Counted from the stretch's first letter, positions 21,179-58,093 are shown. The stretch is 64,000 bases of DNA from Candidatus Nanohalarchaeota archaeon (GCA_017610385.1 JAFCCC010000003.1:5919-69918), one strand, 5' to 3'. Translations and numbers: made by a program. Notes: generated by a model from the sequence alone, not told the origin.

Positions 21179-21212
21179 AATAACTAGTTAACTTTACTTA
21201 ACTCATTTCACA

Positions 21213-35742: not shown

Positions 35743-36090
35743 AAGTGAGGGGACTTTCGAAGGGCTGTTACCTAACAGCTGAAATGCCAGCTGGCACCAA
35801 CAGCGAGTTAACTGAATGTTAACTCACTTCACTTTTTGCATAATTAAATAAAGAGTGCTTTATAAAGTGCGTATAGCCTAAAGCGTTGATTAACTTGACC
35901 GGAAAATATAATTTAAGGTTAAGTTAGCCCAATCACGTTAATCAATTAACCGGTTTCGCGGTTAATTTTGCTTGAGCTTTTACTAAAAAGCTCACGCGTT
36001 AACCGATTTCCCGGTTACTTTTGTGAAGGGAACTTCTGAAGGAACGTCGCATAAAGTGCTGCCTGATTTTGCAGGCATCCGAGCGCTCGG
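35743..36090 (-). ncRNA. candidate structured RNA / mosaic of dispersed hairpin modules
   Basis: at least 9 hairpins; shares modules with tRNA trailers (20274, 21097) and with 57961-58049; strand tentative. Confidence 0.45.
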
Positions 36091-36133
36091 AGTTAAACAC
36101 AACTTTAATAGAATATACTTCTAAAAATTATTT

Positions 36134-37840
36134 ATGAAATATTCTAAATTAGCTAAAATTTATGAAAAATTAGAAAGTAATGGTTCAAGTTTAAAGAAAA
36201 CAGAAATATTAGCTAATTTTTTAAAAGATAAGAATGCGGAAGTTTTAGATAAATTAATTCTTTTAGCAATGGGACGACCTTTTCCAGAATGGAGTGAACT
36301 TGATTTAGGAATTGCAGCTCAATTAATGATTGAAGCAATTTCAAAGGTAAGCGGTATTTCTAAAAAAAAGCTTAATAATTACTGGAGGGAACAAGGAGAC
36401 TTAGGTTTAGTCGCTGAAAAAGTTTTACAAAATAAAACTCAAAGAACCTTATTTTCCCGGTCTTTAAACATTGAAGAAGTTCACAGAAATTTTCAAAAAA
36501 TTGCAGTAACAGAAGGTTTAAATTCACAATCTCGAAAAATTGCATACATTTCAGAGTTGTTGGCCAATGCAGAACCCTATGAAGCAAAATATCTTGTAAG
36601 AACGATTTTACAAACTCTACGAATTGGTGTAGGTTCGGGAGTTGTTCGAGATGCCATTGTACAGGCATTTGATGTTGAAAAGGATTTAGTTGAAAGAGCC
36701 CACGAGGTTAGTAATGATTTTTCGAAAGTGGCAGTAATTGCAAAAGAAAAAGGAAATGAGGGATTAAAAAAAGTCAAAATGGAGCTTTTTAAGCCGGTTA
36801 GATCCATGGATGCTCAAAAAGTTAGAGATGTAGAAGAAGGATTCAAACGCGTTCAGAATAAAGATGGATTTTTGGTTGTAGAACATAAATTAGATGGAAT
36901 GCGTTGCCAAATACATAAAAACAAAGATAAAATACGTATATTTACAAGACGCCTGGAAAATGTTACAAAACAGTTCCCAGAAATTACTAACTTTATTAGA
37001 GATCATGTTTCTGCTGAAAAATGTATTATAGATTCAGAACTTACTGCGTATGATCCACAAACAGGGAATAACTTGCCTTTTCAAGAACTCTCAAAGCGCA
37101 TTAAAAGAAAATATGATATTGAATTAATAGTAAAAGCGATTCCCGTTTTTATCAACGCATTTGATCTCTTATTCTTAAATGGAAAAAATTTGATTACGAA
37201 ACCATACAAAAAGAGATGGAATGAATTAAACGAGATTGTTGAAGAAAAAGAAAAAGAATTTGTTTTAGTTACTCATTTAGAAACAGATAAGCCCGAAAAC
37301 GTTAAAAAATTTTACAAAAGATCTTTAGAACTTAAAAATGAGGGTATTATGTTCAAAAATCTAGATGCAGAGTATAAGCCTGGTTCTAGAGTTGGTCATA
37401 TGGTTAAATTAAAGCCGATTATGGAAACATTGGATTTAATAATAGTTGAAGCCGAATGGGGTGAAGGAAAACGATCTAATTGGCTATCTTCTTTTAAATT
37501 AGCGTGTCAGAATGAAACAGGAACCCCCGTAACTATTGGTAAAATGGCTACCGGATTGACAGAAGAACAATTTAGTGAAATAACAGAAAAACTAAAACCG
37601 CTAATTCTTGAAGAAAGTGGTCGAACAGTTAAGTTAAAACCTCAAATTGTGTTAGAGGTGGCTTATGAAGAGATTCAAAGAAGTCCAACTTATGAATCGA
37701 GGTTTGCATTGAGATTTCCTCGGTTAGTACAATTCAGAGACGATCTAAGCCCAGAAGAGATAGATGACATTAAAAAAGTGAAAAATTTGTATGATGCACA
37801 GAAGCAACACAGAAGTATGGGGGTTAAGAAACGCATTTAA
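36134..37840 (+). CDS. lig: ATP-dependent DNA ligase
   Basis: EHKLDGMRCQIH, EGIMFK, KLK, ALRFPR. Confidence 0.96.
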   Translation: MKYSKLAKIYEKLESNGSSLKKTEILANFLKDKNAEVLDKLILLAMGRPFPEWSELDLGIAAQLMIEAISKVSGISKKKLNNYWREQGDLGLVAEKVLQNKTQRTLFSRSLNIEEVHRNFQKIAVTEGLNSQSRKIAYISELLANAEPYEAKYLVRTILQTLRIGVGSGVVRDAIVQAFDVEKDLVERAHEVSNDFSKVAVIAKEKGNEGLKKVKMELFKPVRSMDAQKVRDVEEGFKRVQNKDGFLVVEHKLDGMRCQIHKNKDKIRIFTRRLENVTKQFPEITNFIRDHVSAEKCIIDSELTAYDPQTGNNLPFQELSKRIKRKYDIELIVKAIPVFINAFDLLFLNGKNLITKPYKKRWNELNEIVEEKEKEFVLVTHLETDKPENVKKFYKRSLELKNEGIMFKNLDAEYKPGSRVGHMVKLKPIMETLDLIIVEAEWGEGKRSNWLSSFKLACQNETGTPVTIGKMATGLTEEQFSEITEKLKPLILEESGRTVKLKPQIVLEVAYEEIQRSPTYESRFALRFPRLVQFRDDLSPEEIDDIKKVKNLYDAQKQHRSMGVKKRI

Positions 37841-37973
37841 AACTAAAAAGTAATAATATCAAAAGAACTAATTAATAATACAAGACATAGGAAAGGTTTA
37901 TATCTAATGAATAACTTATTTTAATTAGGTCGAAACAGTAATAACGCTAAAAAATTTTTTGGTGAAATAAAAA

Positions 37974-38786
37974 ATGGTCGCTTCAAAAGAAACATTAGAT
38001 GCATTAGGGTCCATTGGACTAAATATGTATCAAAGGAAGATTTATTCTGCCCTTTTAAGTCGGGGTGTTTCAACTGCAGGAGAATTAAGTGAAATGACTG
38101 GTGTTCCTAGGTCCAGATCCTATGATGTTCTAGAATCTCTGGCCGATATGGGCTTTGCAATTTTAAAACCATCTAAACCTAGAGAATATGTCGCAATTCC
38201 ACCTTATGAAGCTTTGGAGAATGTAAAGGAACTACAAAAAGGAAAATTAAAAGATAAATTGGCTAAGATCGAAAAATTGAGAAACAGCGAAGCTGTTCAG
38301 GAGTTAAACATTTTATATAATGAAGGAGTCAGTTTAGTGGATCCAGCAGATCTGTCTGGTGCTTTGAAAGGGCGTTATAATCTCTATCAGCATTTAGGAA
38401 ATCTAATTAAGTCTGCTGAACAAGAAGTTAAATTGCTTACAACCGAAACCGGATTAAAAGAATTAGCAGAGAATTATTCAGATATTCTGAGTAAAGCAAA
38501 AGCAAGAGGGGTACGTATTAAAATTATTGCGCCGATTACATCGGAAAATAAAGAATCCTATTTAACTCTCAAAGACTTTGCGGATGTAAGATTACCTGAA
38601 AGAGAAAATTTAAGTAGAATCTCTATTATAGATGGAAAAAGAACAACAATGGCTTTAACACATGAGAAAGTACATCCAACTCAAGATACAGCTTTTTGGA
38701 CAGATTCTTCTCATCTAGCTTCAGGAACCCTAAATCCACTATTTGATATGCTTTGGAATTCTGGAAAGATCCCTGAAAAACCTTAA
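37974..38786 (+). CDS. TrmB-family (TrmBL2-like) regulator / chromatin protein
   Basis: GVPRSRSYDVLESL wHTH plus C-terminal PLD-like domain. Confidence 0.9.
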   Translation: MVASKETLDALGSIGLNMYQRKIYSALLSRGVSTAGELSEMTGVPRSRSYDVLESLADMGFAILKPSKPREYVAIPPYEALENVKELQKGKLKDKLAKIEKLRNSEAVQELNILYNEGVSLVDPADLSGALKGRYNLYQHLGNLIKSAEQEVKLLTTETGLKELAENYSDILSKAKARGVRIKIIAPITSENKESYLTLKDFADVRLPERENLSRISIIDGKRTTMALTHEKVHPTQDTAFWTDSSHLASGTLNPLFDMLWNSGKIPEKP

Positions 38787-38921
38787 AAAGTTTTCGGGGG
38801 AAACTATTTTATTCTAATTACCTAAATCAGACTAAAATTGATTATTTCAGTTTTAGAACTCAATCTAAAAACGAGTTTATTTTAATAGCTCAAATCAAAT
38901 TATATTTCCTAGAGTGATTTC

Positions 38922-39944
38922 ATGTTAACACAAAAACAAATAATTCAGATTAGAGCGTTATTGGAAAAAGCAAAAACCCCATTTTATTTTTTCGATGGGG
39001 ATCCTGATGGACTATGTTCTTTTCTATTACTAATGAAAAAATATGAGAAAGGGGATTTTGAATGTGCAAATTTTCCTGTTGATGATGAAAGACCTTATTT
39101 GGAAAAATCAAAGGAAATCTATTCTGATCTTATTGTTATTCTAGATCGTGCGTATATGACTCAAAAGGCAATTAATTCATTCAGAACAAAAGTTCTGTGG
39201 ATTGATCATCATCCACCACTTAAACGAAATAATGTATTTTATTTTAATTCGCGTTTAAATAGAAAAGAAGTTCCGACAACGTATATGGCATATCAAATTA
39301 CTAGAGAAAATGAATGGTTGGCCACTGTGGGTACTATTGCAGATTATCATCTTCCAGCCTTTTCTAATAATTTTTCCAGACAATATCCTGAAATTCTTCC
39401 AAAAAAGATTATTAATCTCGATGAAATCTTGTTCGATACGAAAATGGGCCAATTAATTGATGTATTTAATTTTAATTTGCATGGCGCGGAAAATTCCATA
39501 AGAAAAAATGTGAATTATCTCTTAAAAATTAAAGATCCCTTGGAAATTTTAGAACAGAAAAATAAAGCAGGGAAATTACTTTACAAAAATTATCAAAAGT
39601 TAAATAAAAAATATCAAAGACTCTTGAAACTGGCTTTGAAAGAAGAAAATGAAAAATTTATGTTTTTTACATACTCTGGAAAAGTTGGATTTACTGGAAA
39701 ATTGAGTATGGAACTAATGTATAGAAAAGATCCAGAAGTGTCTATAGTCGCTAAAGAAGAAAAAGATTCTAATATAATTTCTATGAGCCTGAGATCTAGG
39801 ACTAAAGATGTATCCAAATTGTTAAAACAAGCTTTAGTTGGTTTAGAAGGAGGAGGAGGGGGTCACGAGCATGCTTGTGGCGCACATATTAAAAAAGAAG
39901 ATTTTGAGAAGTTTATTAATACTTTTAGAGAGCTTGTTTCGTAA
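38922..39944 (+). CDS. DHH/DHHA1 phosphoesterase
   Basis: DGDPDG, IDHH, SLRS, GGGHEHACG. Confidence 0.92.
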   Translation: MLTQKQIIQIRALLEKAKTPFYFFDGDPDGLCSFLLLMKKYEKGDFECANFPVDDERPYLEKSKEIYSDLIVILDRAYMTQKAINSFRTKVLWIDHHPPLKRNNVFYFNSRLNRKEVPTTYMAYQITRENEWLATVGTIADYHLPAFSNNFSRQYPEILPKKIINLDEILFDTKMGQLIDVFNFNLHGAENSIRKNVNYLLKIKDPLEILEQKNKAGKLLYKNYQKLNKKYQRLLKLALKEENEKFMFFTYSGKVGFTGKLSMELMYRKDPEVSIVAKEEKDSNIISMSLRSRTKDVSKLLKQALVGLEGGGGGHEHACGAHIKKEDFEKFINTFRELVS

Positions 39945-39979
39945 AAAGTTATATAAACAAAATCAGACAAAAGTAAACT

Positions 39980-40519
39980 ATGATAAAATGGTCTAAAGCA
40001 ATATTATTGGAACTTGTTCTGTATATTTTATTTTTTGTTGAGATGGTTTTGATAAGTTTAATTGGACTTACAGTTACAGGCTATATAATTGTATATTTAG
40101 CAATTTCGCCATTAATTGTCTTGTTTTGTGCCCACAGTTATTTTAATAACCGTAAATTCAATATCCAAGAAGCCTTTTACTTAGGACTTTTCTGGGCAAT
40201 TAGTACATTACTTTTAGATTCTTTGTTTACTACGATGGTATTTAAATTGCCACTAATTTATGAATTTTTAAGTTGGGTTATCTGGTTCTCCTTATTTGAA
40301 ATTTTAATATTCACCACATTTTCAGGTTCTTTGATGAAAGAAGTAATTCGAGATATTCATGCAGTTAAGGAAAAACCTTCAAAGAAAACAGTTGTTAAAA
40401 AACAGATTCGAAGAACAATTAAAAAACCTGCGAAAAAGACAATCGCAAAGAAAACCAAATCTAAATCAAATTCTGTTAAAAAACCTGCGAAAAAGAATAA
40501 ATCAACAAAGAAAAAATAA
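39980..40519 (+). CDS. 4-TM membrane protein with histone H1-like Lys-rich tail
   Basis: hydrophobic N-terminal part; KKPAKK repeated. Confidence 0.75.
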   Translation: MIKWSKAILLELVLYILFFVEMVLISLIGLTVTGYIIVYLAISPLIVLFCAHSYFNNRKFNIQEAFYLGLFWAISTLLLDSLFTTMVFKLPLIYEFLSWVIWFSLFEILIFTTFSGSLMKEVIRDIHAVKEKPSKKTVVKKQIRRTIKKPAKKTIAKKTKSKSNSVKKPAKKNKSTKKK

Positions 40520-40520
40520 A

Positions 40521-40775
40521 TTAATCTACGACAAAGTCGATTTTCAAATGAAATATATGTGGATAATTCGGATTTTGCCTTGAACCCTTGATTCTTGGAT
40601 CCTTAACACAGATTCGAATATCTCTTTTCTTTTCTAATAAATAATCTCTGAAACTTTTCCCACCGAAAATTTCTCTATTTAAAAAATGACCAACAGCTTT
40701 TTCAGCTGAAATATCTATAAAGTGAAATCGATGATATTTTCCATAACCATACTCCCAAACTTCAAAATTTTTCAT
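40521..40775 (-). CDS. hypothetical protein
   Basis: 84-aa ORF coupled to adk (ATGA overlap). Confidence 0.55.
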   Translation of the reverse strand: MKNFEVWEYGYGKYHRFHFIDISAEKAVGHFLNREIFGGKSFRDYLLEKKRDIRICVKDPRIKGSRQNPNYPHIFHLKIDFVVD

Positions 40776-41401
40776 TTTATTTTATTCACGATTTCTTGAA
40801 TATCTTTCCAAACCTCCTTAAGTTCTCTATTGGCATCAATCCTTTTCAAAATACTTCTTTTTTCATAGTATTTTATAACTGGTTTGAGACTTTTATTAAA
40901 AACTCTAGTTCTTTTTCTGATAATTTTTGGTCTATCATCCTCTCTTTGAGTTAATTTTTCTCCACATACGTCACAAATACCTTCTTTTTTTGGAGGTTTT
41001 AATTTAATGTGATAGGTGATATCACAGTTTCTACAAATCCATCGGCCAGAAATTCTTTCTATTAATTCTTTTTGATTCACTTCTAAATAAAGTGCAATAT
41101 CAATTGCTGTAATTTTCTCTAAAAGTTTAACTTGTTTTAAACTTCGCGGAAATCCGTCTAAAATGAAATTTTGTTTGGCGGCCCGTTTAATGAATGGTAA
41201 AATAAATTCTATGACAATGTAGTCTGGGACTAATATCCCTTTTTTAATGTATTTGTGTGGAGTTCCTTTTTTTGTTTTAGTGTTCTCATTTTTTCTTAAA
41301 ATTCCGCCAGTATCAATATATTGCAATTTATATTTTCTACTGATTTTTTCTGCTTGTGTACCTTTACCTGCGCCCGGTGGACCTAATAGTACAATTTTCA
41401 A
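40772..41401 (-). CDS. adk: adenylate kinase (bacterial type, Zn lid)
   Basis: GPPGAGKGTQA, LDGFPR, CxxC...CxxC lid, QREDD. Confidence 0.95.
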   Translation of the reverse strand: MKIVLLGPPGAGKGTQAEKISRKYKLQYIDTGGILRKNENTKTKKGTPHKYIKKGILVPDYIVIEFILPFIKRAAKQNFILDGFPRSLKQVKLLEKITAIDIALYLEVNQKELIERISGRWICRNCDITYHIKLKPPKKEGICDVCGEKLTQREDDRPKIIRKRTRVFNKSLKPVIKYYEKRSILKRIDANRELKEVWKDIQEIVNKIK

Positions 41402-42769
<1,368 letters not shown>

Positions 42770-42832
42770 AATTAATAAAGGTGTTTCTCTTAATTTATAA
42801 GTTAAGCTTGAGTAGAGTAAATTGTGATATAA

Positions 42833-43522
42833 ATGCCTAAATTCCAAGTAATTTTAGATTTAGATAATACTCTTTACCCTTTTCGGGAGAATTTAACACA
42901 ACTTATGCAGAAGCATTTTGTAGGAAAGGATTTAATGAAGGATTATGTGCACTCTAAACACTATCTCAACGGATCTTTTTTTGAGTGGGCATTTAGAACT
43001 GGTTATGGAAAATTAAATAAACTTCCTAGTTGGAGTCAAAACTTAAGAGAATTAGGGAATACAAGACTTTTTACTCATGGAAAGCCATACGACGGTGCGC
43101 AAGAATTAACTGACAAAATAAGTTCTTTGGATGGGCTTGTTTTCATTTTAACACACAGAGGCACCATAGATTCTCCAGACATTTATTTTGATAATGGATT
43201 TGAAAAAACCAAACAATGGCTTGCAAATTATAATATTAAACATCATCGGCTGATTTTTACTCAGAAAAAAGTTGAAACCATGAGAAAATTGGAACAAGAA
43301 TATAATTTGCCAATTTTAATTAGTTTAGAAGACGCAAAAGAAAATGCAGTGCAGATGGCTCAAGCAGGATTTACAACTTTGCTTTTAGAAAAAACTTACA
43401 ATAATATAAACTCTGACTCTCTTGCTCAAGAGTTAATTTCAAACGGAAAATTAATTCTTGTTAAAGATTTGCATGAAGCCCGCGAAAAATTAGAAGAAAT
43501 AGCTCATAAATTCGAAAACTAG
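42833..43522 (+). CDS. HAD-superfamily 5'(3')-nucleotidase-like protein
   Basis: DLDNT motif I, LTHR, LEDA. Confidence 0.75.
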   Translation: MPKFQVILDLDNTLYPFRENLTQLMQKHFVGKDLMKDYVHSKHYLNGSFFEWAFRTGYGKLNKLPSWSQNLRELGNTRLFTHGKPYDGAQELTDKISSLDGLVFILTHRGTIDSPDIYFDNGFEKTKQWLANYNIKHHRLIFTQKKVETMRKLEQEYNLPILISLEDAKENAVQMAQAGFTTLLLEKTYNNINSDSLAQELISNGKLILVKDLHEAREKLEEIAHKFEN

Positions 43523-43559
43523 GAAAATTAAAAGAAAAAATGAATGAGTTAATTATAAC

Positions 43560-43928
43560 TTATTCTAATAATTTTCTACCTTCTATATCCCAGAAAGTAA
43601 TTTCCTCTCCCGCACTTACTTTTTTATCACCTATTTCTAGATCCATCATTTCATAGGTCTTCAGATCCATTACCTGAGCGACGGCTCCACTAATAGAAAC
43701 TACTTGACCAACCTTTTTTACGACATCTGGAGCCATAAATGGTGTGTGGCCTGGTTTTAAAAGATTTCTAGTTCTTTTATCAAAGAGACCTTCTGCCATA
43801 ATTCTATATTTTGCATGTCCGTGTTTTCCCGGTGCGGATCTCTCGATTTTCTTGATTTTGCACGGTTCATTTTCCAAAATAACATAAGATCCCACCTTTA
43901 AATCTCCAATATCTATTTGTGTAGCCAT
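43560..43928 (-). CDS. eif5a: translation factor aIF5A
   Basis: PGKHGHAK hypusine loop. Confidence 0.96.
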   Translation of the reverse strand: MATQIDIGDLKVGSYVILENEPCKIKKIERSAPGKHGHAKYRIMAEGLFDKRTRNLLKPGHTPFMAPDVVKKVGQVVSISGAVAQVMDLKTYEMMDLEIGDKKVSAGEEITFWDIEGRKLLE

Positions 43929-44027
43929 AATTTCACCTTAATTTACTTTATAATATTTGAAGTATATTTAAAAGAGTTTCTATCAGCTCGTATTTGTTTT
44001 ATATATAAATTTACCTAAATTTAATGA

Positions 44028-44759
44028 ATGCCTTCTGAGGAACAAGTAAAAGATTATATTTTACAACAACTTGCTACAGGAAAGAATATTTTAAAGATCA
44101 GGCAAAATCTCATTAATGCAAACTGGTCACCTGCGGCTGTAGATAAACTTTTAGATGAAGTTCTTACTGTAAAAAAATCTCAGACAAAGTCTAAACCAAA
44201 TACTGATAATTTTATTCATTTTTGGTTGCATTCAATTAGTGGAATTATCTTGCATCCAAATGAATTTTTCCAGAATCTTCCAGAATTAAAATTTGGCAAA
44301 ATTATTTTAATTTCTCTTTTAAATTTTCTTGTACCGATTTTAGTTAATGTGGCAATAACTTCTCTTTATGTGTTGCTTTTACCATTTTTAGCTTTCTTTG
44401 TTGGTTTTGGCATTGGTATAAGTTTGTTATATGTTTTAGTTGTTGGAATTCCAACTGCAATTCTTAGCCTTTTTGTTGGAGCAGCATACTTACATTTATT
44501 TGTCAAATTATTCAAAGGAAAAGGTACGTATAAAAAGAGCTTAGAAATTGTGGCGTTTTCATCTGCTGCGTCCCTATTGGGATTAATTCCAATTTTAGGG
44601 GTTATCGCAGCCATTATTTTTACAATTCGCGCGCAAATAAAAGGTATTGCAACTTTACATCAAATGACTTCAAAGAAAGCGGCAATAGTTTTACTTACTT
44701 CCTGGATTTTACCAACTATTCTTATAGGGATTTATTTACTTTTTGTATTTTTAGCCTAA
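44028..44759 (+). CDS. Yip1-domain membrane protein
   Basis: HPNEFF, LHLFVKLFKGKGTY, multi-TM. Confidence 0.75.
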   Translation: MPSEEQVKDYILQQLATGKNILKIRQNLINANWSPAAVDKLLDEVLTVKKSQTKSKPNTDNFIHFWLHSISGIILHPNEFFQNLPELKFGKIILISLLNFLVPILVNVAITSLYVLLLPFLAFFVGFGIGISLLYVLVVGIPTAILSLFVGAAYLHLFVKLFKGKGTYKKSLEIVAFSSAASLLGLIPILGVIAAIIFTIRAQIKGIATLHQMTSKKAAIVLLTSWILPTILIGIYLLFVFLA

Positions 44760-44808
44760 AATTTTGTCGAGTTTTTTTGTTTAAATTTTTTTAAGTACAC
44801 ACTCTTAT

Positions 44809-45279: not shown

Positions 45280-45314
45280 ATTCTTACTTTGTGCCACCAA
45301 GATAAAAAGAACTA

Positions 45315-45751: not shown

Positions 45752-45769
45752 GATTAAATTTTGATTTCA

Positions 45770-45932
45770 AGAAATAAAAAAGAAAGAAAAGAGAAGCTCC
45801 CAATAATTTAGCTAATTAAAGCCAAATCATTGAGGAAAGTGAACTCGAAGGTATTGGGGGAAGGGTTAGATTGTGAGTTCACTAACGAAGCACCGATAAC
45901 GGTTACGCTTCAGCACCTCCTTCAGCATGAAT
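45770..45932 (-). terminator. structured 3' region of ftsZ ending in a hairpin and pyrimidine tract
   Basis: three hairpins; the last, CAATGATTTGGCT/AGCTAAATTATTG, is followed by CTTCTCTTTTCTTTCTTTTT. Confidence 0.5.
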
Positions 45933-48731: not shown

Positions 48732-48765
48732 AACTATTTATATATTGTAAAGAGAAATTTATAGC

Positions 48766-49311: not shown

Positions 49312-49344
49312 CACAAGAATCTATTCGTTTGCTAAAACGAACAG

Positions 49345-50631
49345 TTACTTTTTAGAAAAATAGTCAGCTAATTTCTTTGTTTCAATAGTCTTTTCTTTTC
49401 CAGTCCCCAAATCTTTTACTTTTACTTTTTTGTCTTGAATTTCTTTTTCACCTAAAACAATTAAGTACTTAAAATCTTTAGAAACAGCGTATTTAATTTG
49501 CTTGCTTAAACTTCTTTTAATCAAAGCCATTGCTGATTTTATATTTGAATTTCTTAATTTTTGAACAAGTGCAATTCCACTTTCTTCTAATTCATTATTT
49601 TGAAGGGCTATGAAAACACCTTCATTTTTCAATTTAATTTTTTCCTTTAATATTTCACACAATCTATCAACGCCAAAAGAAAAACCTACTGCATGAGTTT
49701 TCAATGAACCATATGTTTCTATTAAATTATCATATCTTCCTCCTCCTGCACAAGAAAGTTCTAATCCCTCTCCTAAAATTTTTAGTTCCATGATAAATCC
49801 TGTATAGTAATTCATTCCCCGAATTAAACTCAAATCTATTTTAATTTTATCTTGTATGCCATAGGCTTTTGATAACTTTATAATTCTTTCAACTTCCCAG
49901 ATTCCTTCGATTCCAATTTCATTCTTAATTCTTTCTTTTAAAGCTGAAATAATAGTTTCATTTTGCCCTATGATTTTAATAAACTCTAAAATCTGTTTGA
50001 TTTTTTTTAGAGGGATTTTTTTGCTTATTAATTCTTTTTCAACGCCAGATTTACCTATTTTTTCTAATTTGTCTAATGAACGGAAGATATCTTCTTTTCT
50101 ATCTTCTAATTCTAATTCAGTAATAATCCCATCAGCGATTTTTCTAGAATTAATTTTAATTACGTATTTATTCACTCCTAATTCTTTCATACAATCACAT
50201 AAAACACCTATTAATTCTGTATCTGCGCTCTGATCAGAAACTCCTAATATATCAACATCTGCTTGTGTAAATTCTCTATAACGGCCTTTTCCAGGTCTAT
50301 CGTATCGCCATACTTGTCCTATTTGAAATCTTTTATATGGTTTTGGAAGCGTGGGATTGCAAGCAAACATTCTTGCTAAAGGGACAGTAAAATCAAATCG
50401 CAAGCCTAGTTCTCTTTTACTTTTATCTTGAAAATAGTAAATTTCGTCTTTAATCGCGGTTCCTCCGCCACCTTTCATAGCTAAAACATCGAAATTTTCA
50501 AAAGCAGGAGTTCTAGCTTCCTCGAAACCATATTTTTCAAAACTTTTCCTAATTTTGCTTAAAACCAAAGTCATCAGTTTCATATCTTTTCCTAATAAAT
50601 CTCTTGTTCCTCGCGGTGTTTGTACTTTCAT
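49345..50631 (-). CDS. hisS: histidyl-tRNA synthetase
   Basis: PRGTRD, LRFDFTVP, GRYREFTQ, RGMNYYTG, GGGRYD. Confidence 0.97.
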   Translation of the reverse strand: MKVQTPRGTRDLLGKDMKLMTLVLSKIRKSFEKYGFEEARTPAFENFDVLAMKGGGGTAIKDEIYYFQDKSKRELGLRFDFTVPLARMFACNPTLPKPYKRFQIGQVWRYDRPGKGRYREFTQADVDILGVSDQSADTELIGVLCDCMKELGVNKYVIKINSRKIADGIITELELEDRKEDIFRSLDKLEKIGKSGVEKELISKKIPLKKIKQILEFIKIIGQNETIISALKERIKNEIGIEGIWEVERIIKLSKAYGIQDKIKIDLSLIRGMNYYTGFIMELKILGEGLELSCAGGGRYDNLIETYGSLKTHAVGFSFGVDRLCEILKEKIKLKNEGVFIALQNNELEESGIALVQKLRNSNIKSAMALIKRSLSKQIKYAVSKDFKYLIVLGEKEIQDKKVKVKDLGTGKEKTIETKKLADYFSKK

Positions 50632-50843
50632 TTTCGCTCCTTCTTACTATTTGAAATATTATTCTTGTTAGTTAAATAAATGTTCTGTGGTTCAATTAAA
50701 ACAAAAACTTCACTATTTTCTTTGAGTTTTAGTTTTTTGCGAATAGAACCTGGAATCAAAAGCCGTCCTTTGCGATCCATCTTAGAACTAAAGCTAACTG
50801 AGATGAACTGAATCATCTGTGTATCTTTTGATGATGAACGCAA
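50628..50843 (-). CDS. AbrB/MazE/SpoVT-like DNA-binding protein
   Basis: KMDRKGRLLIPGSIRKKLKL; start codon uncertain. Confidence 0.8.
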   Translation of the reverse strand: MRSSSKDTQMIQFISVSFSSKMDRKGRLLIPGSIRKKLKLKENSEVFVLIEPQNIYLTNKNNISNSKKERK

Positions 50844-50966
50844 CCACTTTTCATTTTGATCAACTTAGAAATAACAAACGAGATATTTAAAGATAGGTGG
50901 GATTTAGCATTACAGAAGCTTTACAAAGTCCTTAGGTTTATAAGGGTTTAATTCAAACTAGTTTTT

Positions 50967-51380
50967 ATGGCTGTTGCTGAATTCAAAACAGAACAAGAAT
51001 TCCGAAGACATTTATCTGCAACAGAGTATGGAAAAAGAATTCTAGATATTTTTGATAAGTATGCAGAAGGACACGAAACAAAATACAATACAGACAACTT
51101 GGGCGATTTAGTTGTTCTAGAGGGAGATGATTCTTCATTATCCCTTTCTCTGATGGATGAAGGAAAAAGAGCACAAATTTTATTTGATCTTTATGGTTGT
51201 TTAGCAGAACCACATTTTAAATTGTGGGTTAACTTAGAAACTGGGCATGCACGTTACGGTGTAGGCAGAGAAGTTGACCCCGAACTAGACTATGTAACCG
51301 GTTTTTTAGACCGTGTTACTCGACTTGGCGGATTAAAAGCTGAGCTTTTAGGATTTGCTTCTGATGAAGACGTATTTTAG
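50967..51380 (+). CDS. acidic orphan protein, paralog 1
   Basis: homologous to 51517..51921 (KTEQ.FR, FDKYAEG, ELLGFASDED). Confidence 0.85.
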   Translation: MAVAEFKTEQEFRRHLSATEYGKRILDIFDKYAEGHETKYNTDNLGDLVVLEGDDSSLSLSLMDEGKRAQILFDLYGCLAEPHFKLWVNLETGHARYGVGREVDPELDYVTGFLDRVTRLGGLKAELLGFASDEDVF

Positions 51381-51516
51381 TCTATTCATAATGCAATACA
51401 GCTTCCTGATTTGTTAGTTTTTATAACAACACACTCTGTAAGCTTTTTTACTTTCTTGCATTACAGAAGCTTTACAAAGTCTTTAGGTTTATAACGTTTT
51501 AATCTAATTTATTTTT

Positions 51517-51921
51517 ATGGCTGACGAGCTAATACAACCTAAAACAGAACAAGACTTTCGAGAACAATTGGCTGCAACACCGTATGGAGAAAAAATTATA
51601 GATTTTTTTGATAAGTATGCAGAAGGTTATGAAACACGATGGTCTGACGATGAGATTCTATTTGCTCTAGAAAACAATAGAGAGTCATTATCAATGTACT
51701 TAATGGGTGATGAGAAACAAGTTCTGCTTTCGTTTTATCTTTTTACGCCTTTAGCCGGTCCGGAGTTAACTATTCAGCTTGATTTAAATACTGGACATAC
51801 TCTCTATGGTGTAGACGGAAAATTTCCTTCAGATCCAACGCGTTTTTTAGATCACGTTGAAAAAATAGCGGAATTAAAAGATGAGCTTTTAGGATTTGCT
51901 TCTGATGAAGACATACTTTAA
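51517..51921 (+). CDS. acidic orphan protein, paralog 2
   Basis: homologous to 50967..51380. Confidence 0.85.
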   Translation: MADELIQPKTEQDFREQLAATPYGEKIIDFFDKYAEGYETRWSDDEILFALENNRESLSMYLMGDEKQVLLSFYLFTPLAGPELTIQLDLNTGHTLYGVDGKFPSDPTRFLDHVEKIAELKDELLGFASDEDIL

Positions 51922-51922
51922 C

Positions 51923-52426
51923 TTACTCAAAATGTAAAACAGCCTCTTGATTTGTTAGTTTTTTTACAACGGTTCTGAAAGAAACCTCATTAAACGGAAT
52001 CCGGCCTTTATCTTTTTGAGAAATCATAATCTTTTTCTTTTCACCGTCTTTAGAAAATAATGTATTGACGCCCAGAAGTTTTACTGGGAAAACGAGGCTT
52101 TTTACGATCTCTTCAAACTTAGGAGATTTTTCTATAATTCTAATTGATTTTCCTGTTTTTTTAGCTAAAAGTTTGACGATTTTTCCGTTTTTACCAACTA
52201 CCTTTGCCCCATCACCCTCTTCTGTTAGGATTACAATAGAATCTGAAGTTGGGATGATTTCGTGAATAGTCGCGCTTTTAAGTGAAGGAATTTCTTCACC
52301 GAGCCTAAATAATGTTCTTGAAACGTCAATTATGCTTTCTGTGAGTTCTCCTTTTAACAATTTTTGACTGCAACCACTACACAAAAAATCAGATTTTAAA
52401 CAAACAGAACAAAGCGGTGTTTTCAT
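51923..52426 (-). CDS. NusA-like KH-domain protein with N-terminal Zn finger
   Basis: MKTPLCSVCLKSDFLCSGC, KH VVGKNG, LLGVNTLF. Confidence 0.85.
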   Translation of the reverse strand: MKTPLCSVCLKSDFLCSGCSQKLLKGELTESIIDVSRTLFRLGEEIPSLKSATIHEIIPTSDSIVILTEEGDGAKVVGKNGKIVKLLAKKTGKSIRIIEKSPKFEEIVKSLVFPVKLLGVNTLFSKDGEKKKIMISQKDKGRIPFNEVSFRTVVKKLTNQEAVLHFE

Positions 52427-52488
52427 AATTCTAATTTCGAAACTAAAACATAAATAAATGTTCAATTATGTTTATATTGGAGGAAAAG

Positions 52489-53670
52489 ATGAAAGTAGGA
52501 ATCATCGGAAAACCCAGTGCAGGAAAATCAACATTATTCAAAGCAATAACTCAAAAAGATGTAGAAATTGCAAATTATCCATTCACGACCATCCAACCAA
52601 ATCTGGGCGTTGCATTTGTTACTCAGGAATGTCCCTGTAAAGAATTAAATGTAATTTGTTCTCCCCAAAATTCTAAGTGCTTAAACCACATCAGATTAAT
52701 TCCCATCAATGTTTTAGATGTTGCGGGGTTAGTTCCAGGCGCTTCAGAAGGCAAGGGTTTAGGAAATCAATTTTTAGACACTCTCCGAGAGGCTTCTGTA
52801 TTAATTCACGTTCTAGATCTAAGTGGAAAAACAGATGAAAAAGGAGAGCAAACAGAAAACCATGATCCTGCTATAGATAAAGAATTTGTTGAACAAGAAA
52901 TTGACGCATGGTTTTTAAACATTTTTCAAAAGAACTGGAGTGAATATTCAAAAAAAATTCACATGCAACACTTAAAATTAGATGAATTTCTTGCGGAAAA
53001 AATGTCTGGATTAGGAATAACAAAAGAGTTAGTTCAAAATGCACTAAGAAATTTAAAATTAGATTCAGATCCGCTAACATGGACTAAAGAAGACTTTCCA
53101 AAATTTATTTTACACATGAGAAAAGAATCAAAACCTATGATTTATGCATGTAATAAAATGGATTTAGACGGAGCAAATGAACGATTTGAAGACTTAAAGA
53201 AAAAATACCCAAATGATTTGTTTATCCCAACAAGCGCAGAATGTGAATTGGCATTAAAGAATGCTGCAGATCACGGGTTTATTTCTTATATCCCCGGAGC
53301 AGACACTTTTGAAATTACTCACGAGTTGAATGAAAAGCAAAAACACGCATTAGGAATAATCAATGATAAAATTTTGAAAAAATATGGGAGTACCGGAATA
53401 CAAGAGGCATTAAACAGAGCGGTTTTTGATTTATTAGATTATATTGTAGTTTATCCTGTAGAAGATGAAACTCATTACAAAAGCAAAAAAGGCAATATCC
53501 TTCCAGACGCAATTTTATTAAAAAACAAATCAACCGCCTTAGATTTAGCTTTCAAAATTCATACAGAAATCGGAGAGAAGTTCGTGAAAGCCATTGATGT
53601 TAGAACACATAGAATTATTGCAAAAGATCATGTTCTAAAGAACAGAGATATAATTAAAATTGTTGTCTAA
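52489..53670 (+). CDS. Obg-family YchF/Ygr210-like NTPase with TGS domain
   Basis: GKPSAGKST, YPFTTI, DVAGL, NKMD, AFKIHT. Confidence 0.93.
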   Translation: MKVGIIGKPSAGKSTLFKAITQKDVEIANYPFTTIQPNLGVAFVTQECPCKELNVICSPQNSKCLNHIRLIPINVLDVAGLVPGASEGKGLGNQFLDTLREASVLIHVLDLSGKTDEKGEQTENHDPAIDKEFVEQEIDAWFLNIFQKNWSEYSKKIHMQHLKLDEFLAEKMSGLGITKELVQNALRNLKLDSDPLTWTKEDFPKFILHMRKESKPMIYACNKMDLDGANERFEDLKKKYPNDLFIPTSAECELALKNAADHGFISYIPGADTFEITHELNEKQKHALGIINDKILKKYGSTGIQEALNRAVFDLLDYIVVYPVEDETHYKSKKGNILPDAILLKNKSTALDLAFKIHTEIGEKFVKAIDVRTHRIIAKDHVLKNRDIIKIVV

Positions 53671-54221
53671 ATATCAAAGTGCCTTGTGCTACTGAGAAAT
53701 GCATTTATGTCAAATTCCTCAAGATTTTCATTTCCAAACACCCATTCGATAGGCCATTTAGCCATATTTACAATTGAAAATAATAATGGTCTGCTCCTAT
53801 GTTTTCGATATCTCTCACCAATACTTCTAGCAAGTTCAAATACTGTTGGATATTCTGGAGCAGTATATCCTGTGTCCGAGTATTGGCTTTTACCTACTGA
53901 GCCCCACCCCTCTTCAGTTCTAAATATTGCATTAACGTGACCTGGACCCCAAAGTACAAGATTTATTAATAATGGTGGATAACCTAATTTAGAAAGAAAA
54001 TACGCACCAACCAATGCTCCATCCACACACAATGCGTTACCTTCTTTTAATGTTCTTTCAACACTATTTACATAATAATTCCTATCTATTTTACAATAGC
54101 GATATTCTAATGTATCTAATACTGATTGTATTTCTTCAGGCGTGCTTAGTTTTAAATCAGGTATCATACTCATCACAGAATATGCTTTAAGATTCTCTTT
54201 GAAGCGTGAACTTACCTTCAA
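53667..54221 (-). CDS. transglutaminase-like Cys-protease-fold protein
   Basis: LCVDGA...GHVNAIF..EGWGSVGKS; true start probably ATG near 54173. Confidence 0.6.
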   Translation of the reverse strand: MKVSSRFKENLKAYSVMSMIPDLKLSTPEEIQSVLDTLEYRYCKIDRNYYVNSVERTLKEGNALCVDGALVGAYFLSKLGYPPLLINLVLWGPGHVNAIFRTEEGWGSVGKSQYSDTGYTAPEYPTVFELARSIGERYRKHRSRPLLFSIVNMAKWPIEWVFGNENLEEFDINAFLSSTRHFDI

Positions 54222-54250
54222 GAAAATCTGTTCAGGTTTTTGTAGCTTCT

Positions 54251-54547
54251 TTATTCTTCCAAGTGAGCTGCGATTATTCGTGCCACATCTTCTTTATTTT
54301 CTTCTAAATAGGCCTTTACAGCTTCTCCAACTTCTTTTTTAAAAACCGATTCCATTGCGGCATCCAAGAAATGTTCTCTTTTTTTATACTGTTCTCACGC
54401 ACTGTCATTACATTCTCGCATACTCTGGTATGGAGATCCAGAACTTACTAGGCTATTTACGTACGTTTCTCTTAACCATATTGAGAGGTGTATAAGTTCT
54501 GTATAACTGCGCTCTTCAAGATTCTCTGGTAAAGTACCAACTGGCAT
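54251..54547 (-). pseudogene. 98-codon orphan ORF with one in-frame TGA (codon 51)
   Basis: MPVGTLPEN...CNDSA*EQYKKREH...IAAHLEE*; TATA TTTAAA and palindrome upstream. Confidence 0.5.
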
Positions 54548-54677
54548 ATAATTTTCTTTAGAACAACTTAATTTAAACCTAGGTAATGCGCACTACCAGT
54601 CCATTATTTATTTAACTCTTGCAAGGTCAGGTTTATTTAATGTGTTTAGAAAGCAAATTATCTTAAATATCTAATGT

Positions 54678-55772
54678 TTATTTGAAATGAAGTTCCAAAA
54701 CATCCTCATCTAATAAAATATGATGTCGGCCTTTATTTTGTCCTTCGAATTTTGCACTTTTACCCCAAACGCGTGCATAATTAAAATTCTTTTGGAATTC
54801 TTTGTGGATTTTTTCACAAACTTGATCTACTGTTGAACCAATTTTAATGATTAATGGCGCTTTTCGATCTGGTTCTTTTCCAATTCTTTTCATGTATACT
54901 CTCATTAATTCTAGATTATTCCATAATTGTTCTACGAATCTATTCAAATTCCAAGATTTATCTGCTGAAATAAACGTCATTTTTGGGAAATCTTTTTTAA
55001 TTTTTATTAATTCCCCTTTTGAGAGTTCATCAATTTTATTTAGAATTTCTATAAAATGAATATAAACCCGATTCCCTGCTAAAAAATCAATTAAAGTATC
55101 TATTGTTATGTTTTCGCGAATTAAAACATCCGCATTTGCTATTCCATATTCTCTAAAGAGTTCCTTTATTGTATCTTCATCTAAATCTAATTTGAGTGGC
55201 GTTAATAGATTAATACCTCCAGAAACCTTCTTTTTAAGTCTAATTAGCGGTGGTTGTTGATTTAATCTGATACCAGAGTTATAAAGTTCTTGTTCTAGTT
55301 GTTTGACATCTTTTAATCTTTTATAATCTGTTATTAAAACAATCAAATCAGTATTTCTAATAACACTTAAAACTTCTTTACCTCTTCCTTTTCCTTTTGA
55401 AGCACCGATAATTAATCCAGGGACATCTAATATCTGTATTTGTGCTCCTTTGTAGTTTAAAACTCCTGGAATGACTTTGAGCGTAGTAAATTCATAATAA
55501 CCTATTTCTGATTCTGCATTTGTTAATTTATTCAATAAAGTAGACTTGCCTGCAGATGGTGGACCCACTAGAGAAATGCTAGCATCTCCAGATTTTCTTA
55601 AACCATATCCTAGACCTTTTTTACCTGAAATTTTAGATTCATGTGATTCTTTTTTATCTTCTAATTTTGCTATATTAGCCTTTAATTTCGCTCTTTCCTT
55701 TTCTGTTCCTTTATTTACTGGTGTTTTACTCAATTTCAGTTTTAATTCATCTAGTCTATCTTGAATGCTCAT
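54678..55772 (-). CDS. DRG/Rbg1-family GTPase with TGS domain
   Basis: TPVNKGTE, GPPSAGKST, YEFTT, DVPG, NKID, VWGKSAKF. Confidence 0.95.
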   Translation of the reverse strand: MSIQDRLDELKLKLSKTPVNKGTEKERAKLKANIAKLEDKKESHESKISGKKGLGYGLRKSGDASISLVGPPSAGKSTLLNKLTNAESEIGYYEFTTLKVIPGVLNYKGAQIQILDVPGLIIGASKGKGRGKEVLSVIRNTDLIVLITDYKRLKDVKQLEQELYNSGIRLNQQPPLIRLKKKVSGGINLLTPLKLDLDEDTIKELFREYGIANADVLIRENITIDTLIDFLAGNRVYIHFIEILNKIDELSKGELIKIKKDFPKMTFISADKSWNLNRFVEQLWNNLELMRVYMKRIGKEPDRKAPLIIKIGSTVDQVCEKIHKEFQKNFNYARVWGKSAKFEGQNKGRHHILLDEDVLELHFK

Positions 55773-55825
55773 AGTGTATTAAGAGAAACCTTGTGTTTAA
55801 ATTACTTTAGTTCCGTAGTCTTTTC

Positions 55826-56479
55826 ATGGAACGAAAAATTCAGAGAGTTATTGAAATCTGTGAAAATAATTATGGAAAACCAAAACCATTTAGATTAAGT
55901 AACTCATTAGATCTTTTAGTAGAAACAATTCTTTCTCAGAATACCAATGATAAAAATACGTTTAAAGCATTCTCTGCTTTGAAAAAATATTATGTAAATT
56001 ACGAAGAAGTACTTGCGGCAAATGAAACAAAATTAGCAAAAATAATTTACAGTTCAGGATTTTATAATTTAAAAGCTAAAAGAATTCAAGAGGCTCTTCG
56101 AGCAATTAAGGAAGATCGAGGGTCTTTAAATTTAGATTTTTTAAAAAATAAGAGCAAATCTGTCGCGTTTAATTATCTAATTAAACTTCCAGGAATTGGT
56201 CCAAAAACCGCTGCCATTGTTCTTACTTTTGGTTTAAATCACGAAAGTATTCCAGTAGATACACATGTTTATAGGGTTTCTCAGAGATTGGGCTTAGTTC
56301 CTAAAACTTTTGACAGAACAAAAACTCAGGAATTTTTAGAGAACAACACAAAAAGAGGATTAAAAAATGCGCTACATTATTATTTAATTAAGCACGGAAG
56401 AGAAGTATGTCGTGCTAGAAAACCATCTTGTTCTGAGTGTTTTTTAAAAAAAGAATGCAAGCATTTTAAAAATAAATAA
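55826..56479 (+). CDS. nth: endonuclease III (HhH-GPD, 4Fe-4S)
   Basis: LSQNT, LPGIGPKTA, VDTHV, C-x6-C-x2-C-x5-C. Confidence 0.94.
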   Translation: MERKIQRVIEICENNYGKPKPFRLSNSLDLLVETILSQNTNDKNTFKAFSALKKYYVNYEEVLAANETKLAKIIYSSGFYNLKAKRIQEALRAIKEDRGSLNLDFLKNKSKSVAFNYLIKLPGIGPKTAAIVLTFGLNHESIPVDTHVYRVSQRLGLVPKTFDRTKTQEFLENNTKRGLKNALHYYLIKHGREVCRARKPSCSECFLKKECKHFKNK

Positions 56480-56485
56480 GATATT

Positions 56486-57895
56486 TCAAAAGTAAGTAAT
56501 AGCATGTTCAGAATTTCTTATTCTGTCTCTTTTTCTAAAGAAAAATTCAAATTGTGCTTTTGGCAATTTTACAGTACCTTCTACTTTTAATATTGGTCTA
56601 AATTTATAACTCAAAATTCGTTCTTCACCAGGATTCAGATTTCCGATTTTCCATTCTATTTCTATGCCGCCTTTTTTATTTTTTATTGAAGTTGGCTTGG
56701 CCGCCTCAAATTTATTAGATAATTTCACGATTTCTGGAACATGGTCTATAACCCTAACTTTTGTTAGAAGTTCTTTGGTGTTGTTTTTAATATAAATGTA
56801 AATGGTATGTTCTCCTTTGGATATACGAGCAACTTTCATGATTTTTGGCACCTGAAACTCATACATCGCAAAGTATCCTGTTCCAAATACAAAAAGCGCA
56901 ATTAAGAATAAAATCCAATAATTTATTCTGTATTTTACTAAAATTGTTTCACCAGGTTCTAAGTCTTTTATTACCCAATTGTATTTTATTCCGCCACCAA
57001 TTTTCTCTTTTGAGGCTATTTTCAAATTTGATTTCATTAAATACGATTTTAATCTGTTAATAGATCCACTAACTATCTGAGACTCTTTCTTGACGTTTCC
57101 GGTATTTTTAATTTCAATTTTGTATGTATGCCAGAAAAAAAAACTTTTGTCTGATTTGTCAATACTTATGCTTTGTATTGGTGGAATATTAATTCTAATA
57201 GACTTTGAACTTTCGATTTCTCCTTCTGTGTTTATCACATTCAAAATAATGTTTTGAACGCCAACTAATTTTTCATCAACTCTTATAGGAATATTAAAAT
57301 AAAATGTGCTTCCCGGTTTTAACATAGGAATTGAAACAGAATTATTTGTGTTATTTAATGTTCCCATTAAAGAATAACTTCCTATCTCATATGCTGCAAC
57401 ATTTTTTATTTGCCCAGTAAGATTAATTATTTCTCCTGGAACATAACTTGTTTTAGTTGTTCTAAGACCGGAAACTGATAATTTTTCATCTCTTACGACG
57501 GTTATGAAAGCTTCTAATTTAAGATAATTCTCTAAATCGCTTTTAGGGTATATGTAAATAAAGAATCCTCTATTGCCTGCTTCTGCATTTTCATCTGGCG
57601 TTACATAAATTTTAGTAGTTTTTGTAGTATTTGGTAAAAGATCTAAAGAATAATCTTGTTGATAAAACCAACCAGGTTTCATGCTTTGTGTGTAAATCGT
57701 AAATCTATCTGCTGTTGGCATTTCGTTTGTAACTTCTACTCTAAATTCCCCGACCTCTCCAGGGTAAACATTTTGTTTAATTGCATAAATGGTTCCCTTA
57801 AATCCTTCTACACATAGGCCAAAGGAAGATAATAAGACAAATAGAATTAATGGAACCAGAATTAATGATTTTCTCATATTCCCCCAAAACAGCAT
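56486..57895 (-). CDS. secreted Ig-like (CARDB-type) multidomain membrane protein
   Basis: signal peptide, beta-rich repeats (L.PGE), central TM. Confidence 0.75.
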   Translation of the reverse strand: MLFWGNMRKSLILVPLILFVLLSSFGLCVEGFKGTIYAIKQNVYPGEVGEFRVEVTNEMPTADRFTIYTQSMKPGWFYQQDYSLDLLPNTTKTTKIYVTPDENAEAGNRGFFIYIYPKSDLENYLKLEAFITVVRDEKLSVSGLRTTKTSYVPGEIINLTGQIKNVAAYEIGSYSLMGTLNNTNNSVSIPMLKPGSTFYFNIPIRVDEKLVGVQNIILNVINTEGEIESSKSIRINIPPIQSISIDKSDKSFFFWHTYKIEIKNTGNVKKESQIVSGSINRLKSYLMKSNLKIASKEKIGGGIKYNWVIKDLEPGETILVKYRINYWILFLIALFVFGTGYFAMYEFQVPKIMKVARISKGEHTIYIYIKNNTKELLTKVRVIDHVPEIVKLSNKFEAAKPTSIKNKKGGIEIEWKIGNLNPGEERILSYKFRPILKVEGTVKLPKAQFEFFFRKRDRIRNSEHAITYF

Positions 57896-57960
57896 TATTC
57901 GGTAATTTTTATAAGTTTATGTGCTGAATGATGTCGTTAATATTGCCGCGAATTATAAGG

Positions 57961-58049
57961 AACTCACTTCACTTTTTCGTATTTGCGTGAAGGGGGCTTC
58001 TGAAGGAATTTCACATAGAGCATTAACCGATTTTGCAGTTATTTGAGTG
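57961..58049 (-). ncRNA. candidate structured RNA downstream of tRNA-Pro; homolog at 35821-36085
   Basis: 17-nt identity plus a 63-nt ungapped block with compensatory changes. Confidence 0.5.
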
Positions 58050-58093
58050 AAGGTTGCCTTAAGAAGTGCTTGCCGCCTGAGTTAACAGGTAAA

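Follow-up and report, generated by a model that had tools for sequence, protein, structure and literature searches.

The window, a 64,000-nucleotide (nt) stretch of Candidatus Nanohalarchaeota archaeon DNA (GCA_017610385.1 JAFCCC010000003.1:5919-69918), contains two related, hairpin-rich stretches in direct orientation, which we call copy 1 (35743-36091) and copy 2 (about 57944-58093). It corresponds to contig C3:5919-69918 of a 788-kb, 18-contig genome of 32% G+C (G000; 0.79 Mb, DPANN-type, 93.5% complete), whose contigs are denoted C3, C8, C9, C10, C13 and so on. Copy 1 ends upstream of a DNA ligase gene, and copy 2 ends at the 3' end of a tRNA-Pro(UGG) gene (58093-58167, minus strand). Long introns occur in the genome's tRNA genes, and an archaeal RNase P RNA and a single splicing endonuclease are encoded. 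A first-pass annotation of the window had set narrower limits for the two copies (35821-36085 and 57961-58049) and had read them as a single new structured element, one copy of which carries a 185-nt loop insertion. As described below, both copies are probably mosaics of short hairpin modules and not one new structured RNA gene.

The resemblance between the two copies is considerable. The 17-mer AACTCACTTCACTTTTT is identical at 35821-35837 and 57961-57977 (17/17) and occurs nowhere else in the window, and the ungapped blocks at 36023-36085 and 57987-58049 agree at 46 of 63 positions. The second-best placement of the 63-nt block in the window gave 32 identities, and 200 shuffled queries gave a maximum of 31.2±1.0 (highest 34); the observed value is far above the shuffles, and the similarity of the copies is therefore real. 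The spacing from CTTCAC to GTGAAG is also as first described, 185 nt in one copy and 9 nt in the other.

Direct repeats of which one lies beside a tRNA gene might be attachment-site repeats or the ends of a 22-kb integrated element, and a tyrosine recombinase gene is indeed present at 60846-62093. However, the recombinase gene is outside the interval between the copies, and the interval itself holds the ligase, adenylate kinase, CCA-adding enzyme, aIF5A, FtsZ, two aminoacyl-tRNA synthetases and GTPases. Elsewhere, no tRNA-Pro fragment was found, and the 63-nt blocks are only 73% alike and have many other family members. We regard a 22-kb element of this kind as exceedingly improbable. The proposal that the copies are mobile-element ends thus fails for the housekeeping interval but survives in another form, since the cassette within the 63-nt block is itself a small insertion element in relatives (see below). 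The recombinase (415 aa, plus strand) is encoded 2.7 kb from the 5' side of tRNA-Pro, amid open reading frames with no Pfam matches (58430-58894, 59530-60738 and 62126-63040). An integrated element may have left this region behind; no att-like tRNA repeat was found for it. Three tyrosine recombinases are encoded in G000, this one included, and no link between them and the cassettes was found.

Copy 1 was dissected by short-word BLAST against the whole genome, with the loci aligned side by side and the modules, labelled M1 to M9, counted by motif; coordinates are given for the plus strand. The first module is a decayed SL-A-type hairpin, GTGAGGGGAC..GTTACC, with a UUYBGAAGGR loop (35745-35772) and the architecture seen in units on C10 and C13. 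M1 (35776-35837) consists of a hairpin (CAGCTG-AAATGC-CAGCTG), the spacer GCACCAACAGC, a second hairpin, H2 (GAGTTAAC-TGAAT-GTTAACTC), and the tail ACTTCACTTTTT, and the 17-mer shared with copy 2 is the 3' arm of H2 plus this tail. The M1 core has seven copies in the genome (at most 3 mismatches), three of which abut position +1 of a tRNA on the opposite strand, and H2 has 22 copies with compensating stem variants. M2 (35838-35885) terminates in the linker CCTAAAGCG and is common to C13:126443-126639, along with M1, M3 and M4. M3 (35886-35945) is a 60-nt hairpin, TTGATTAAC..GTTAATCAA, with an A+T-rich loop and four genome copies, on C3, C8, C10 and C13. M4 (35946-35965; TAACCG-GTTTCG-CGGTTA) is one of eight copies of an SL-B-type hairpin. 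M5 (35966-35998) has a TTTTGCT head and the hairpin TGAGCTTTT-ACT-AAAAGCTCA; its near-palindromic pattern occurs at 12 places, most of them matching on both strands (22 rows), one being inside the 276-nt intron of tRNA-Pro(GGG) on C9. M6 (35999-36018; TAACCG-ATTTCC-CGGTTA), identified by BLAST and motif count, is again of the SL-B type.

The 63-nt block of the first-pass annotation corresponds in copy 1 to a two-hairpin cassette at 36019-36077, with the head TTTTGTGAAGG, a decayed SL-A hairpin, the linker ATAAAGTGC and, at 36060-36077, the SL-B hairpin TGCCTG-ATTTTG-CAGGCA. Copy 1 is closed by M9 (36078-36091), a 14-nt palindrome, TCCGAGCGCTCGGA, situated 44 nt upstream of the ligase start codon and present in 19 genome copies at no more than one mismatch.

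In the whole-genome BLAST comparison, positions 35775-35970 match C13:126443-126639 (90% over 197 nt), 35876-36009 match C10:10280-10413 (95% over 134 nt), 35875-35964 match C8:45838-45927 (98% over 90 nt) and 36052-36091 match three further loci at 95-100%. The array at C13:126369-126641 is colinear with copy 1 except that M5 and M6 are absent. What had been taken for a 185-nt insertion (35838-36022) is thus M2 to M6, five modules that are free-standing on C10, C8 and C13. At no fewer than seven other loci in G000 the modules recur in shuffled order.

Copy 2 is built from the same kinds of parts in a more decayed state. It begins with a decayed H2 hairpin, GCGAATTA..GGAACTC, followed by the tail CTTCACTTTTT and a 14-nt loop leading to GTGAAG (57944-57986). 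The first cassette (57987-58044) has a GTGAAGG head, a decayed SL-A hairpin, the linker ATAGAGCAT and the SL-B hairpin TAACCG-ATTTTG-CAGTTA, with one C.A mismatch. A second, decayed cassette (58045-58093; GTGAAGGTTGCC.., AAGTGC, the hairpin CCTG-AGTTAA-CAGG and TAAA) reaches the 3' end of tRNA-Pro, so that the 45 nt said to separate copy 2 from the tRNA gene are themselves part of the array. Cassettes abut a tRNA 3' end in the same way at tRNA-Ala(CGC) on C9 and at tRNA-Pro(GGG) of G001, a second genome of the same order.

We then considered whether the two copies could form one multibranch noncoding RNA (ncRNA) or ribozyme, as first suggested. The likeness in the 17-mer and the 63-nt block far exceeds chance, and the order H2 tail CTTCAC ... 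GTGAAGG head is found at four loci, with a middle of 9-186 nt. The stem proposed to close the structure, GCUCG or ACUCA paired with UGAGU, however, draws its arms from two other local elements: in all 22 genome copies AACTC pairs locally, as the 3' arm of the hairpin GAGTTA..TAACTC, which has compensating variants, and GCTCG belongs to the independent M9 palindrome. The closing stem is therefore unsupported. Copy 1 folds much better than shuffled sequences on both strands (z = -6.3 on plus, -5.3 on minus), and copy 2 folds no better than its shuffles (z = -0.66 on plus, -1.14 on minus). In addition, the order of modules is shuffled among loci, the supposed insert is made of modules that stand free elsewhere, and cassettes occur alone in relatives, without the H2 tail. 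Nor does Rfam recognise a known family: Rfam 15 found three tRNAs and nothing else in the window at gathering score, E-value scans of both copies gave chance-level scores of 12.9-17.8 bits, far below gathering, and well-formed cassettes from five loci had no match. A single ncRNA in two copies is, in our estimation, very unlikely. Selection on structure is borne out for the two small hairpins within the 63-nt block, which covary in relatives from other genomes, and not for the element as a whole.

The CTTCAC/GTGAAG stem is a more ambiguous case. A GTGAAG lies within 400 nt downstream of three of the seven CTTCAC tails, and seven of nine GTGAAGG heads (five of seven loci) have a CTTCAC upstream, with a background of 0.15 per kb for the 400-nt range. 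A short form on C10, ATTTAC-TCTTTT-GTAAAG, shows a compensating C-G to U-A change when read by eye, a change that would favor the ncRNA. The pairing may represent a small hairpin whose loop served as a landing place.

Comparison of G000 with itself revealed 40 repeat islands with at least two copies. Eighteen of these lie within 300 nt of a tRNA marker, as against 4.7±2.1 expected from random non-coding places (1000 draws, highest 11), although a few of the tRNA-near islands may stem from likeness among the tRNA genes themselves. Modules also fill tRNA introns: one of 276 nt in tRNA-Pro(GGG) and two, of 177 and 167 nt, in separate tRNA-Trp genes. The 177-nt intron, on C13, opens with AACAGCU.., H2 and an ACUUCAC tail, continues with M5 and M9, and is colinear with the plus strand of copy 1 through three colinear exact matches. 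Introns of 151-276 nt composed of hairpin modules are found in the tRNA genes at C9:7021-7373, C13:67127-67376, C17:23520-23757 and C12:15892-16114; the tRNA-Trp genes of G000 are missed by the Rfam tRNA model at gathering score. Counted by eye, nine of 35 tRNA trailers in G000 begin with a family hairpin. One array follows tRNA-Ala (21021-21094) at window positions 21095-21180, where the hairpin TGAGCTTT-CAC-AAAGCTCA lies 2-3 nt past the tRNA and is followed by H2 and a TAAGCC..-type hairpin. Elsewhere in the window, a tRNA gene with a 50-nt intron (4365-4476, minus strand) was found by the Rfam tRNA model and missed by a default ARAGORN run. The window copies are not inside a tRNA gene; the accepted tRNA marker nearest to copy 1 is 14.7 kb away, a T-arm match about 1.9 kb from copy 1 in the T-arm census having been dropped as false because it falls inside a protein-coding frame.

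The cassette measures ∼65-75 nt and consists of a GUGAAGG head, SL-A, the linker UAAAGUGC (A-AAG-Y-G-Y, AAAGYGY) and SL-B, which has a 6-bp stem and an AUUUYG loop. A covariance model, R1, was built from eight G000 cassette copies (15 predicted pairs, 8 with compensating changes) and used, with stricter filters, to search the 70 genomes of the G000 order. It found 13 matches in G000, three in G001 and none in the 68 other genomes. In the window, the cassette of copy 1 is matched at 36016-36080 (76.4 bits, E = 2.5e-19) and cassette 1 of copy 2 at 57980-58044 (64.9 bits), and the M4 region is matched weakly at 35909-35967 (E = 0.029). One G001 match is in sense inside the 112-nt intron of tRNA-Arg(CCU), the second is antisense and abuts the 3' end of tRNA-Pro(GGG), and the third is intergenic. 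Searched in one genome per species, an exact 23-letter pattern also matched a metagenome-assembled genome (MAG) labelled as Pacearchaeota, in which R1 gives 12 matches. Across the order of this MAG (39 genomes, hereafter the second order), R1 gave 54 matches in 11 genomes, with at most 11 per genome. Metagenome contigs had no match to an exact 25-nt pattern and no relatives of the ligase protein were found in them; two matches of a degenerate pattern in viral contigs were rejected as chance, both lying in coding DNA with non-complementary stem letters.

Alignments of these cassettes showed that both hairpins covary strongly. Among 18 sequences drawn from G000, G001 and the Pacearchaeota-labelled MAG, pairing holds in 94.2% of cells, with changes on both sides in 12 of 15 pairs; in 22 distinct sequences from outside G000, the values are 94.5% and 13 of 15, and the SL-B stem is 99% paired with four of its six pairs compensating. 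In both sets, the percentage of paired cells and the covariation score exceeded those of all 500 shuffles; pairing in slid controls was 22-48%. The hairpin that differs between the window copies, TGCCTG/CAGGCA in one and TAACCG/CAGTTA in the other, around ATTTTG, is accordingly real and its stem covaries, as the first-pass annotation had seen. The strand is another matter, since that annotation had read the hairpin on the minus strand. Among 55 distinct second-order sequences, we counted 692 Watson-Crick, 48 G·U, 6 A·C and 13 other cells, and U·G occupies one of the SL-A pairs in 35 of 50 sequences; in G000 alone, where the two window cassettes are the most mismatched rows and copy 2 cassette 1 the most mismatched of all, there are 17 G·U and 5 A·C. 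From the asymmetry of 48 to 6 it follows that the fold belongs to one strand, which is the plus strand of the window, as RNA or single-stranded DNA. On these sequence comparisons the plus-strand fold is favored and a minus-strand reading of the window copies appears less likely.

The single-stranded parts are more constant than the stems. Linker positions A, A, A, G and G and the AUUU of the loop are invariant in all 55 second-order sequences. In the same alignment, linker position Y80 equals Y87, which complements R96, in 53 of 55 sequences, and Y82 equals N98 in 52 of 55 (SL-B pairs 87-96 and 85-98). This coupling of linker and stem has the pattern of U.A-U and C.G-C base triples, and the same outer stems accompany either linker type; an origin in two old subfamilies is an alternative explanation. 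Several functional readings of the cassette were considered by eye only. For a K-turn, box C/D or H/ACA guide RNA, GUGAAGG and CUGAAGG are 6 nt apart, which seems too close for a guide, no ACA follows the hairpins, and no Rfam snoRNA family matched at threshold. Other readings were dropped: an oligo-U terminator is opposed by a maximum of U4 in the cassette (a U5 run in G001 is inside a tRNA intron), an Sm site by AUUUUG being a closed loop, which cannot thread a ring, and a promoter by the linker at -27 to -20 of tRNA-Leu not being A+T-rich.

M9 raises a different possibility, namely that the hairpins are double-stranded DNA operators for dimeric transcription factors. Nine of the 19 M9 copies are located 32-50 nt from a start codon, that of the DNA ligase gene among them. 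The G.U to A.C ratio (48 to 6) and the free variation of stem letters in the cassette nevertheless argue against duplex read-out, as do cassettes within introns and between cistrons, and we think it most improbable that the hairpins in general are operators. M9 itself may be the operator of a replication and repair regulon. Its sites include C5:2803, C6:13805, C8:45929, C13:126374, C13:135006, C13:146754, C14:25778 and C17:8403, and its neighbors include genes for DNA ligase, an HhH-GPD glycosylase, a KaiC/RadB-like ATPase and a divergent OB-fold/GINS51 pair. Solo M9 copies carry compensating extended arms, and one copy lies inside a tRNA-Trp intron.

In relatives, the cassette is found as an insertion. 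A second-order genome, G097, has four cassettes, all in sense, at the junctions L2|S19, L22|S3, SUI1|RNase P p29 and L5|S14. At L2|S19, an insert of ∼96 nt is bracketed by two copies of the 27 nt that end the L2 gene. In G096 and G098 the same junction is empty and has a single copy of the 27 nt, with S19 94-96% identical to that of G097. The filled and empty sites give direct evidence that the cassette inserts and that the target is duplicated. The same junction is occupied in G070 (contig C8 of that genome) by a different hairpin insert, of the CCTTTTCTTTTCTAAAGAAAAGG type, between two copies of the 27-nt target, so several hairpin families seem to insert in the same manner. At L5|S14 of G097 (L080 5710-5870), the duplicated target takes in the downstream gene's ribosome-binding site and its start codon, and from the upstream ATG copy a short frame extends across the cassette to a stop just ahead of the genuine start.

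Flanking direct repeats were then scored for the cassettes of the second order against a null of cross-paired flanks (7.2±1.5, 99th percentile 11.5). In 27 of 58 cassettes, the flanking repeats, 13-72 nt long, were at or above the 99th percentile. The downstream repeat copy mostly begins 0-4 nt past the foot of SL-B. A flank repeat of 29 nt (score 19.0) also accompanies one cassette in G001. Most second-order cassettes (53/58) are outside tRNA genes. Over both orders, intron cassettes occur in tRNA-Arg(CCU) of G001 and of G070 and in a tRNA-Ser of G108, and in relatives SL-B ends 0-1 nt before +1 of tRNA-Leu and tRNA-Met. Two intron cassettes, and three that lie at tRNA 3' ends, are antisense to the tRNA. 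In a crude and noisy frame analysis, about 20 of 58 cassettes had the end of a same-strand frame within 40 nt upstream and about 10 the end of an opposite-strand frame within 40 nt downstream.

The positions of these cassettes could also be explained if the hairpins were an RNA signal of use to the host in pre-tRNAs and polycistronic mRNAs, such as a protein-binding or processing site or a folding insulator; the window arrays would then be leader, trailer or untranslated-region elements. Consistent with such a role are the sense-strand-specific fold with its conserved U.G and excess of G.U cells, the placement of all four G097 copies in sense in the ribosomal protein operon, the SL-B feet next to +1 of tRNA-Leu and tRNA-Met, the related hairpins that abut +1 of three G000 tRNAs and the trailers that open with a family hairpin. 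The invariance of linker and loop in two orders would fit a useful signal as well. The distribution, by contrast, is patchy (2 of 70 and 11 of 39 genomes), the same junction is empty in close relatives, both orientations relative to tRNAs occur and decayed copies such as copy 2 are tolerated; moreover, target duplications mark insertion and not a signal. On balance an RNA signal seems to us rather unlikely.

We favor the view that both copies are arrays of hairpin modules from a DPANN repeat family whose cassette is mobile in relatives, and consider this a likely account. On this account, the cassette is in the second order a small non-autonomous insertion element that enters gene junctions, tRNA flanks and tRNA introns, with its right end at the SL-B foot, leaving a direct target duplication of 13-72 nt. 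In G000, older and nested insertions and recombination between shared linkers would have piled modules into mosaics, one of which would fill the spacer between the exosome operon and the ligase gene and another, decayed, the tRNA-Pro trailer. The window copies show no duplications and are regarded as old, nested or rearranged, and we infer that they arose by the same insertion route.

Several observations weigh against this reading. All genomes compared are draft MAGs, and the alignments used for pair counts were fitted to R1, so that pairing is favored. Flank duplications are missing from 31 of the 58 second-order cassettes, and tandem cassette copies make up about 4 of the 27 positives; in the arrays of G000 none of 12 flank tests reached the 99th percentile (best 10.5, threshold 11.5). 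The constancy of linker and loop and the four sense copies in a ribosomal protein operon, as noted, would also suit a useful RNA signal. The search for a mobilising enzyme was likewise negative: the Y1 transposase domain PF01797 was absent from G000 and from five of five cassette-rich genomes, with control genomes positive; DDE_Tnp_1 gave only a sub-threshold 21-bit match in G000, and the TnpB domain only sub-threshold matches; and the reverse transcriptase domain RVT_1 was absent from G000 and present in two of 39 second-order genomes, one with cassettes and the other without.

A right end fixed at the hairpin foot, together with variable left junctions and duplications, fits either an unknown enzyme that reads the head and loop, or template switching at hairpins during replication or repair. 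The enzyme route is favored because, in both orders, head and loop do not vary although the stems have drifted. Such an enzyme would read the invariant linker and loop on single-stranded DNA or RNA. We advance only tentatively the further idea that the cassette is an undescribed archaeal mobile element, recognised by way of its invariant single-stranded head and loop, which makes long and variable duplications with no recognisable transposase or reverse transcriptase, lands even between ribosomal protein genes and becomes a tRNA intron where a bulge-helix-bulge forms.

Among known systems, bacterial REP elements and their mosaics (BIMEs and REPINs), which are moved by RAYT (Y1/HUH) transposases, offer a parallel in form. 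Like them, the cassette is a short imperfect palindrome with compensating stem changes and a fixed single-stranded head (AAAGYGY), and has many intergenic copies, often at gene ends, mosaic arrays and a strand-specific fold as expected of single-stranded DNA. Unlike them, it has two hairpins and archaeal hosts, and no Y1 transposase occurs in G000 or the five cassette-rich genomes. REPs are also not known to make long, variable target duplications, as the cassettes do. BOX elements of Streptococcus pneumoniae are similarly modular, with a variable number and order of hairpin boxes between genes, but have no sequence relation to the cassettes, belong to another domain of life and differ from them in that cassettes lie inside tRNA introns. 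SINE-like target-primed insertions share a 3' end fixed at a terminal stem-loop, variable 5' junctions and duplications of variable length; the cassette, in contrast, has no A-tail, and its hosts offer no reverse transcriptase in G000 and one in only 2 of 39 second-order genomes. A miniature derivative (MITE) of a DDE insertion sequence is a poor match, given the variable duplications (13-72 nt) and the lack of terminal inverted repeats in the flanks.

Thermoproteales have shared ('transposed') families of bulge-helix-bulge tRNA introns, in which related short sequences occupy introns of different tRNA genes (Fujishima et al. 2010, as summarised in PMC4090602 and bioRxiv 10.64898/2026.10.13.758758). 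In these papers, insofar as their relevant passages go, intron gain is thought to take place at the DNA level by a transposition mechanism 'still unknown' (PMC4090602), and for archaeal tRNA introns 'how they arrive remains open' (bioRxiv 10.64898/2026.10.13.758758). The elements described here resemble those families in that cassettes or modules occupy introns of tRNA-Arg, tRNA-Ser, tRNA-Trp and tRNA-Pro. They differ in that most copies lie outside tRNA genes, with target duplications and in both orientations; free-standing copies do not figure in those passages of the two papers. At the level of titles and abstracts, we found no description of hairpin repeat families in DPANN archaea, and the cassette family appears to be undescribed in print.

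Arrays such as those in the window mimic structured ncRNA genes, which is a warning for annotation. The relatives also indicate that symbiont genomes of 0.5-0.8 Mb tolerate active small repeats, even in their ribosomal protein operons. One short cassette is seen here in three states: freshly inserted, with a duplicated target and orthologous sites that are empty; making up the body of tRNA introns; and decayed into mosaics beside tRNA genes. It provides a sequence handle for testing the gain of tRNA introns by insertion. Should the more tentative idea of an undescribed mobile element hold, the cassette would be a concrete vehicle for the unexplained gain, or 'transposition', of archaeal tRNA introns.

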